64,000 bases of DNA from Dictyostelium discoideum (lineage: Eukaryota): contig CM000151.3 of NCBI GenBank assembly GCA_000004695.1, forward strand, positions 736,001 to 800,000, in the 5' to 3' direction. The translations under genes were made by a program, and so were the position numbers. Within the stretch, counting starts at the first letter, position 1; each line of letters begins with the position of its first letter. Below the pieces are notes generated by a model. The model was not told the origin of the DNA, made no database searches, and worked only from the letters and a program-made list of their open reading frames with translations. Positions 32,598-32,927 of this stretch are shown piece by piece.

Positions 32598-32927
32598 ATG
32601 GAGTAGGTGTTGGGTAGTAATCTTTCAGTGGTGTATCTTTTAGATACTCATTTTGGTTTTATCTGATTGAATGTTGAAGTATTTTTGCCATTACCTTTGG
32701 CCATCAGTGTAAGTCTTTTCAAAAATGTGCAAATGAATGAGATTGGTTATGAATGTTTAGACAACCATGGCTTTTGTGGATGACAGAATCGTTCTCTTGG
32801 TACTATGATAGAAATTTTTGAAGATCAAGCTATAATAGGGTTTGCAAATGTATCTCATATCTGTGTTTGAAATTGGGGTGAGTTTGAGGTGAGACTACTG
32901 AGGAGATTTTTTTTTTTTTTTTTTTTA
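32598..32927 (+). ncRNA. Candidate structured non-coding RNA gene of about 320 nt (class unknown)
   Basis: An island of roughly 38% G+C with no ORF sits inside a 2.7-kb, roughly 15% G+C gene desert. A TATAAATA box at 32571-32578 lies about 25 nt upstream, and the element ends in a 20-nt T-run (32908-32927). Local hairpins are present (GUAUCUuuuaGAUAC). It contains a GUAAUC motif and U2-like GAUCAAG...UAUCUG fragments, but no confident class assignment is possible. Confidence 0.25.

Follow-up and report, generated by a model that had tools for sequence, protein, structure and literature searches.

The Spacer between the FNIP-Repeat Gene and ipkA1

The window analyzed here is a stretch of 64,000 nucleotides of chromosome 2 of Dictyostelium discoideum, with an overall G+C content of 22.4%. 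An FNIP-repeat ORF of 661 aa, located at positions 30288-32273 on the - strand, was found to be identical to XP_645476.1/DDB_G0271758 of D. discoideum AX4. This gene was reported at chr2:766288-768273 (Rosengarten et al. 2017, PMC5295588, File S6), and from this offset, all published positions were converted to window coordinates by subtracting 736000 from the chr2 coordinate. The IPK gene found on the other side of the adjacent 2.7-kb spacer is ipkA1 (DDB_G0271760), whose spliced product has 316 aa.

In a first-pass annotation, made from the sequence alone, this spacer was described as a gene desert devoid of ORFs of 60 aa or more. The program-made ORF list indeed contains none of that size, the largest ORF between the FNIP and IPK genes being 57 aa long (34482-34655). 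However, this ORF corresponds to exon 2 of an annotated two-exon gene, DDB_G0271800 (34369-34655, + strand), and two further non-coding blocks of the spacer, described at the end of this section, are kept across species, so that the term gene desert does not apply. DDB_G0271800 encodes a product of 68 aa (MKTNNFSDFFK followed by MIIFRKRIEPSYKANQKRPLLKRTKNF...NNLLW) that has no Pfam match, and the gene is also kept in D. citrinum, D. dimigraforme, and D. firmibasis, its counterpart in the latter species being called as a 68-aa gene. An antisense model covering DDB_G0271800 has also been published (chr2:770356-770877, - strand; PMC5295588, File S7).

A G+C-Rich Island in an AT-Rich Spacer

The first-pass annotation had singled out a sharply bounded G+C-rich block in this spacer, and the composition analysis upheld it: the 309 nt at positions 32598-32906 contain 35.3% G+C, versus 12.6% for the 2403 nt of the remaining spacer. 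Read on the + strand, the island is G+T-rich (A 27, C 11, G 25, and T 38%).

Three sequence motifs had been put forward as signs of a small RNA gene. All three are present, but none of them stands out from the background of the window. The upstream box TATAAATA lies at 32569-32576 on the + strand, 22 nt 5' of the island. Although it could serve as a Pol II TATA box, it has nothing distinctive, being found 46 times in the 64-kb window, and the start of the published transcript described below (32452) lies further upstream. The terminal oligo-T is a run of 20 T (T20) at 32907-32926 on the + strand. Such tracts are ordinary here, as 354 A/T runs of at least 8 nt (5.5 per kb) and 103 of at least 15 nt were counted in the window, and the published transcript model reads through this one, which is not a demonstrated terminator. 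Finally, the Alu-domain-like motif GUAAUC corresponds to GTAATC at 32617, which occurs 21 times in the window, a background frequency.

The Island Belongs to a Catalogued Intergenic lncRNA

The island transcript is already known. Rosengarten et al. (2017) reported a single-exon lncRNA of 787 nt at chr2:768452-769239 on the + strand (CUFF_949_1/DDB_G3970649; PMC5295588, File S4), which corresponds to positions 32452-33239 of the window and contains 20% G+C (Files S4 and S6). The model encloses the island, whose positions 32598-32906 form its G+C-rich core, and runs past the T20 tract. A non-coding transcript on the + strand had been predicted over the island, and the published model bears this out. 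The first-pass annotation had considered that the lack of both an Rfam match and a transcript would argue against its candidate: an Rfam match is lacking, as detailed below, whereas a transcript has been published.

The lncRNA models of this catalogue were built from strand-aware, rRNA-depleted RNA-seq and had to be at least 200 nt long, located entirely between genes, and not linked by a tiling path to any neighboring gene (PMC5295588), and DDB_G3970649 is listed among the transcripts with these properties in Files S4 and S6. The abundance filter was permissive, two raw reads at any time point being sufficient (PMC5295588), so that DDB_G3970649 may represent a very scarce transcript, and its ends are placed only approximately. 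Within 32452-33239, + strand ORFs reach at most 47 aa, and the one of that length lies mostly within the AT-rich leader. No Pfam match was found in any frame of the lncRNA region. A 5' UTR or an upstream exon of the FNIP gene was ruled out as an explanation of this transcript, since the FNIP gene is encoded on the - strand, and the model runs on the + strand, with no tiling path leading to a neighbor.

The CUFF identifiers of this locus are inconsistent: chr2:768452-769239 is named CUFF_949_1 in File S4 and CUFF_798_1 in File S6, and both names denote other loci in other files of the same study (PMC5295588). Coordinates should therefore be used rather than names.

In many respects, DDB_G3970649 is a typical member of the catalogue of 621 models (Rosengarten et al. 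2017). It is intergenic, has a single exon, is 787 nt long compared with a median of 628 nt, and has no ORF reaching 150 nt on the transcribed strand; its G+C content of 20% compares with medians of 17% for the lncRNAs and 13% for random intergenic DNA. It differs from the other models in two ways. The 35% G+C of the island core exceeds that of a typical lncRNA and even that of the median ORF (25%), and the Spearman correlation of its expression with that of its divergent neighbor DDB_G0271758 is 0.47, compared with a median of 0.03. The correlation with DDB_G0271800 is -0.05 (PMC5295588, File S6).

The Island Is Part of an Insert Restricted to the D. discoideum Complex

Nine related loci, retrieved via the protein orthologues of the FNIP gene and ipkA1, were compared with the window. 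These included an AX4-like assembly (L001), two divergent D. discoideum strains (L002 and L004), two D. cf. discoideum isolates (L008 and L009), D. citrinum (L007), D. dimigraforme (L003), and D. firmibasis (L010). The window and L001 share 99.7% identity overall, and their islands do not differ.

In a colinear blastn comparison of positions 28000-38000 with L007, the D. citrinum alignment ended at 32559 and restarted at 33391, with 36 nt in between. The intervening segment of about 830 nt (32560-33390) is thus an insertion relative to D. citrinum and was found only in the D. discoideum complex. No homologue of the island, in either of the forms described below, was detected in D. citrinum, D. 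dimigraforme, or D. firmibasis, whether in the syntenic spacers or anywhere else in their loci of 17-22 kb, although other parts of the spacer (33696-33823, 33888-34181, and DDB_G0271800) align across these sister species. D. citrinum is the closest relative of D. discoideum. On these species relationships, a single gain in the D. discoideum complex would be the most economical history; two independent losses would be a possible, less economical one.

The FNIP gene itself varies between these loci. In D. firmibasis (L010, 9583-11055), no counterpart of DDB_G0271758 was found at the syntenic position, where ipkA1 and the small gene are directly followed by the orthologue of a 782-aa neighbor. 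The genes called at this position in D. citrinum and D. cf. discoideum would encode 695-743 aa, more than the 661 aa of AX4. The assemblies GCA_054859355.1 and GCA_054859385.1 (L002 and L004) are labelled D. discoideum, and DNA identity to AX4 is only about 91.5% over positions 28000-32589, as measured for L002. The FNIP proteins of both strains cluster with that of AX4 at 90% identity, the L002 protein being 92% identical. Taken together, the DNA and protein comparisons suggest that deep lineages or cryptic species are found under the name D. discoideum.

Strains of the Complex Carry a Mosaic of Island Alleles

At the same place as the AX4 island, L002 and L004 carry a longer island of about 550-610 nt with 36% G+C. 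The likeness between AX4 and these long alleles is confined to the two ends: a 26-nt segment at the 5' end (segment a, 32600-32625, + strand; 93% identity), and the last ~23 nt together with the downstream flank. This 3' end (segment z, GTGAGACTACTGAGGAGATTTT, 32889-32911, + strand) is common to AX4, L002, L004, and L008. The interiors of the AX4 and L002 islands could not be distinguished from unrelated sequences, as their global alignment score was 24.5, compared with 21.6 ± 4.0 for shuffled sequences, and 68 of 300 shuffles scored as high. No likeness was found with the reverse complement of the interior either.

The AX4 interior consists of two parts. Segment b (32629-32746, + strand) is common only to the AX4 form and to L008, with 75% identity and one 12-nt indel, and segment c (32747-32888, + strand) is present in AX4 and L001 only and has no counterpart in the other alleles. 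The L008 allele joins an AX4-type segment b to L002-type segments e and f and to the common 3' end, and L009 retains only the L002-type segment h (90% identity). The simplest history for such a mosaic would be an ancestral insert that was longer than any surviving allele and was shortened by separate deletions in the individual lineages. In the layout proposed for this ancestor, segment a would stand first and segments e, f, and z last, with b and g-h placed between them.

The L002 and L004 islands differ by 2.75 mismatches per 100 nt, a value within the range of the flanking intergenic DNA (2.6-4.1) and above that of the coding sequences (0.7-2.1). The island thus evolves about as fast as intergenic DNA.

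A Probable Transcribed Relic of a Young Insert

These results are probably best explained if the island, the G+C-rich core of the catalogued lncRNA DDB_G3970649, is an unconstrained but still transcribed relic of a young insert specific to the D. discoideum complex. The transcript would start in a short AT-rich region, head-to-head with the FNIP-repeat gene DDB_G0271758, at a distance of 179 nt from its start codon. It would be synthesized by Pol II, probably from a promoter region shared with this gene, and would run across the ~830 nt of DNA apparently gained in the ancestor of the species complex. An invariant element of this region described below, TTGAAAATTTAGGTA (32458-32472), would probably act as a shared or bidirectional promoter element. 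This DNA appears to be free of detectable constraint on its sequence or structure, and the strains would have lost different internal parts of it while keeping the ends. The G+C content of the island would still be distinct because the insert is young, not because an RNA fold has been preserved. Most likely, the transcript arises as a by-product when promoter-proximal transcription crosses the decaying insert, with at most a sequence-independent cis effect on the FNIP gene, and no sequence-specific function of the island is evident.

Comparable situations are found among the divergent promoter-upstream lncRNAs, transcribed young insertions, and unitary pseudogenes of other eukaryotes. With these, DDB_G3970649 shares its head-to-head position and co-expression with a coding gene, its restriction to one lineage, its fast evolution, and a structure that varies between strains. 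It differs from them in that the analysis revealed neither a parent gene nor a mobile element.

A possible though unlikely origin of the insert is a young orphan coding gene on the + strand, restricted to the D. discoideum complex and either arisen de novo or acquired, of which the island would be a transcribed pseudogene that decayed to different extents in different strains. In the long alleles, one + strand frame is poor in stops: in L004, three stops were counted over its 187 codons, together with an open stretch of 109 codons, and 13 and 29 of 1000 dinucleotide shuffles were as extreme when the best of six frames was taken. In this frame, L008 has an ATG-started ORF exceeding 71 aa, and the AX4 sequence starts likewise (MNEIG...) before a stop after 16 codons. 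A weak 3-nt periodicity in G+C was also observed in AX4 (p = 0.028), L002 (p = 0.011), and L008 (p = 0.008), and the transcript is on the + strand, as expected from such a gene. However, AX4 itself shows no open-frame signal, as 840 of 1000 shuffles did as well, and an in-frame TAG is common to AX4, L002, and L004. The periodicity is far below that of real exons, with a third-position G+C content of 26-28% compared with 7-19% in real exons. No codon-phase bias was seen among the substitutions that separate the alleles, and some indels are gaps of a single nucleotide. Moreover, no Pfam match was found in any informative frame, and a phmmer search with the 38-aa AX4 + strand ORF against 1.84 billion representative sequences returned only tandem-repeat artefacts.

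In a more specific and rather improbable version of this history, an insert of ~0.8-1 kb would have carried or spawned a + strand ORF that was kept in L008 (more than 71 codons) and decayed in AX4 into a lncRNA, with transcription still starting in the promoter region common to this RNA and the FNIP gene. If this were true, the locus would be a record of the birth and piecemeal death of a gene of the D. discoideum complex.

Two other sources of the inserted DNA were rejected. A decayed copy of a neighboring gene was not supported by tblastx and tblastn comparisons of all alleles with the window, the related loci, and the FNIP and IPK proteins, in which no match was significant (best E ~0.5, in a tiny database). 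A bacterial origin was dropped after a blastn search against a plasmid collection that gave no match. In a metagenome scan with the conserved 20-mer GGAGTAGGTGTTGRGTAGTA, only two chance matches were found, in unrelated prokaryote-like contigs.

We also considered whether the island is a functional cis-acting lncRNA that would tune the divergent FNIP gene DDB_G0271758 either by being transcribed or through its product, and found this doubtful. The arrangement is favorable, as the model starts head-to-head with the FNIP gene, 179 nt from its ATG, and the Spearman correlation of 0.47 between the two, against a median of 0.03 for divergent lncRNA-gene pairs (PMC5295588), is compatible with a regulatory link. 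At the junction, the candidate promoter element TTGAAAATTTAGGTA (32458-32472), which lies at the beginning of the lncRNA model, between the island and the FNIP start codon and ~190 nt upstream of the latter, was invariant in all seven aligned sequences (AX4, L001, L002, L004, L008, L009, and D. citrinum). However, a shared promoter or open chromatin alone predicts co-expression. In addition, some strains have lost the transcribed sequence or carry another in its place, and D. citrinum and D. dimigraforme lack it while keeping the FNIP gene. Any function of the island therefore cannot depend on its sequence.

It is still less likely that the island is what remains of a mobile element, for example of a solo LTR, a non-autonomous DNA transposon, or a retroelement fragment, that inserted upstream of the FNIP gene and has since been eroded. 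A lineage-specific insertion of ~830 nt with a G+C content above that of the surrounding DNA would fit such an element, and alleles that are alike at their ends and unlike inside are reminiscent of internally deleted elements. However, the only inverted or direct repeats found at the borders were A/T low-complexity pairs, and the ends are not of the TG...CA type. The window does not contain any tRNA gene that could have attracted the tRNA-targeted TRE and DGLT-A elements. No second copy was found in the 64-kb window, where the island matched only T-runs, or in the related loci (~190 kb in total), and no reverse transcriptase, integrase, or transposase domain was detected by Pfam in any frame.

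The Island Does Not Match a Structured RNA

The first-pass annotation had proposed a structured Pol III RNA of about 320 nt, of the size of SRP RNA, RNase P/MRP RNA, or U3, and this proposal did not withstand analysis. No match was obtained when the whole window was scanned by cmscan with all 4227 Rfam families at their gathering thresholds. When the threshold was relaxed to E ≤ 10 on positions 32400-33100, only two noise matches appeared, to snoR09 (22.9 bits) and to a trypanosomatid H/ACA model (15.5 bits), and scans of the remaining spacer at E ≤ 5 and of the L002 allele at E ≤ 10 also gave noise only. The SRP covariance model gave no match, either at the gathering threshold in the window or at E ≤ 10 on 32400-33100. 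Rfam SRP models include a Dictyostelium-specific one. U3 was likewise not matched by cmscan, the best box C/D score being the weak match to snoR09 (E = 0.99), whose gathering score is 50 bits.

The RNase P and RNase MRP models (RF00009 and RF00030) gave no match by cmscan. On visual inspection, a pairing reminiscent of the P4 pseudoknot can be drawn between GUAAGUCU (32707) and AGACUAC (32893), but L008, with GUAAUCCU and ACACUAC in their place, has not maintained it. Moreover, the RNase MRP RNA of D. discoideum was described previously (PMC1796607). The RNase P/MRP reading was dropped on these grounds.

The internal hairpins that had been noticed are no more stable than those of shuffled sequences. 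The minimum free energy of the 313-nt island was -67.2 kcal/mol on the + strand, compared with -70.1 ± 4.0 kcal/mol for dinucleotide shuffles (z = +0.72), and the z-score was also positive on the opposite strand (+0.15). Those of four sub-segments of the island ranged from -0.95 to +2.72. In the 125 nt shared by AX4 and L008, all eight substitutions in predicted stems keep the pairing, but this equals the shuffled control (253 of 500), and the structure was derived from the same two sequences.

The promoter element of the DUSE-dependent ncRNA genes of Dictyostelium was also searched for. The DUSE is defined as [AT]CCCA[ACT]AA, about 60 nt upstream of the RNA start (PMC3188802). Eleven exact matches were found in the window, against 11.07 expected by chance, and none of them lies within the spacer. 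Even with up to one mismatch allowed, no DUSE was found at 32400-32640 on the + strand.

It is thus extremely unlikely that the island encodes a small RNA made from a Pol III or DUSE promoter, whether an SRP, RNase P/MRP, U3, or snoRNA or a new class of ~310 nt ending at T20: its length, its TATA-like box, its T20 tract, and a possible terminal helix between 32620-32630 and 32894-32905 would fit, yet the 787-nt published model continues through T20 to 33239, and the sequence is missing or replaced in close relatives. A housekeeping RNA is excluded because the sequence is absent in sister species and replaced in other D. discoideum strains, and membership of the known structured-RNA families is already refuted. 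The likeness to the DUSE-driven ncRNA genes of Dictyostelium (spliceosomal snRNAs and Class I/II RNAs), or to SRP RNA, RNase P/MRP RNA, and U3, is therefore superficial and limited to a non-coding island of ~300 nt followed by a T-run; unlike them, the island has no DUSE, no covariance-model match, no conservation in dictyostelids, and no excess structure.

Assigning the island to DDB_G3970649 removes a false candidate for a missing housekeeping RNA and has little import beyond annotation. The reading of the island as a transcribed relic of a young insert would imply that, in an extremely AT-rich genome, a G+C-rich island can mark young, undecayed DNA rather than a constrained RNA. The allele mosaic would then be a small but concrete example of how fast inserts erode, and the locus illustrates that a catalogued lncRNA can be without sequence conservation even inside a species complex.

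Conserved Non-Coding Blocks Elsewhere in the Spacer

The constrained part of the spacer is not the island but two non-coding blocks located at 33888-34110 and 33696-33823, which were conserved across all eight related loci. In blastn comparisons, the block delimited as 33885-34110 showed 74-91% identity to AX4. Among the near-invariant stretches of the conserved blocks are GAAATCACACTATCACATAAGATTATCATAGC, GATAAATTGTATAGGTGAGTG, and GTTTGATTCATCAT. These blocks had no Rfam match, and the covariation term calculated by RNAalifold was positive, that is, penalising. They may correspond to promoter elements of DDB_G0271800 or to an unannotated exon. A 28-aa ORF with an ATG start begins at 34110 on the - strand, at the conserved block.
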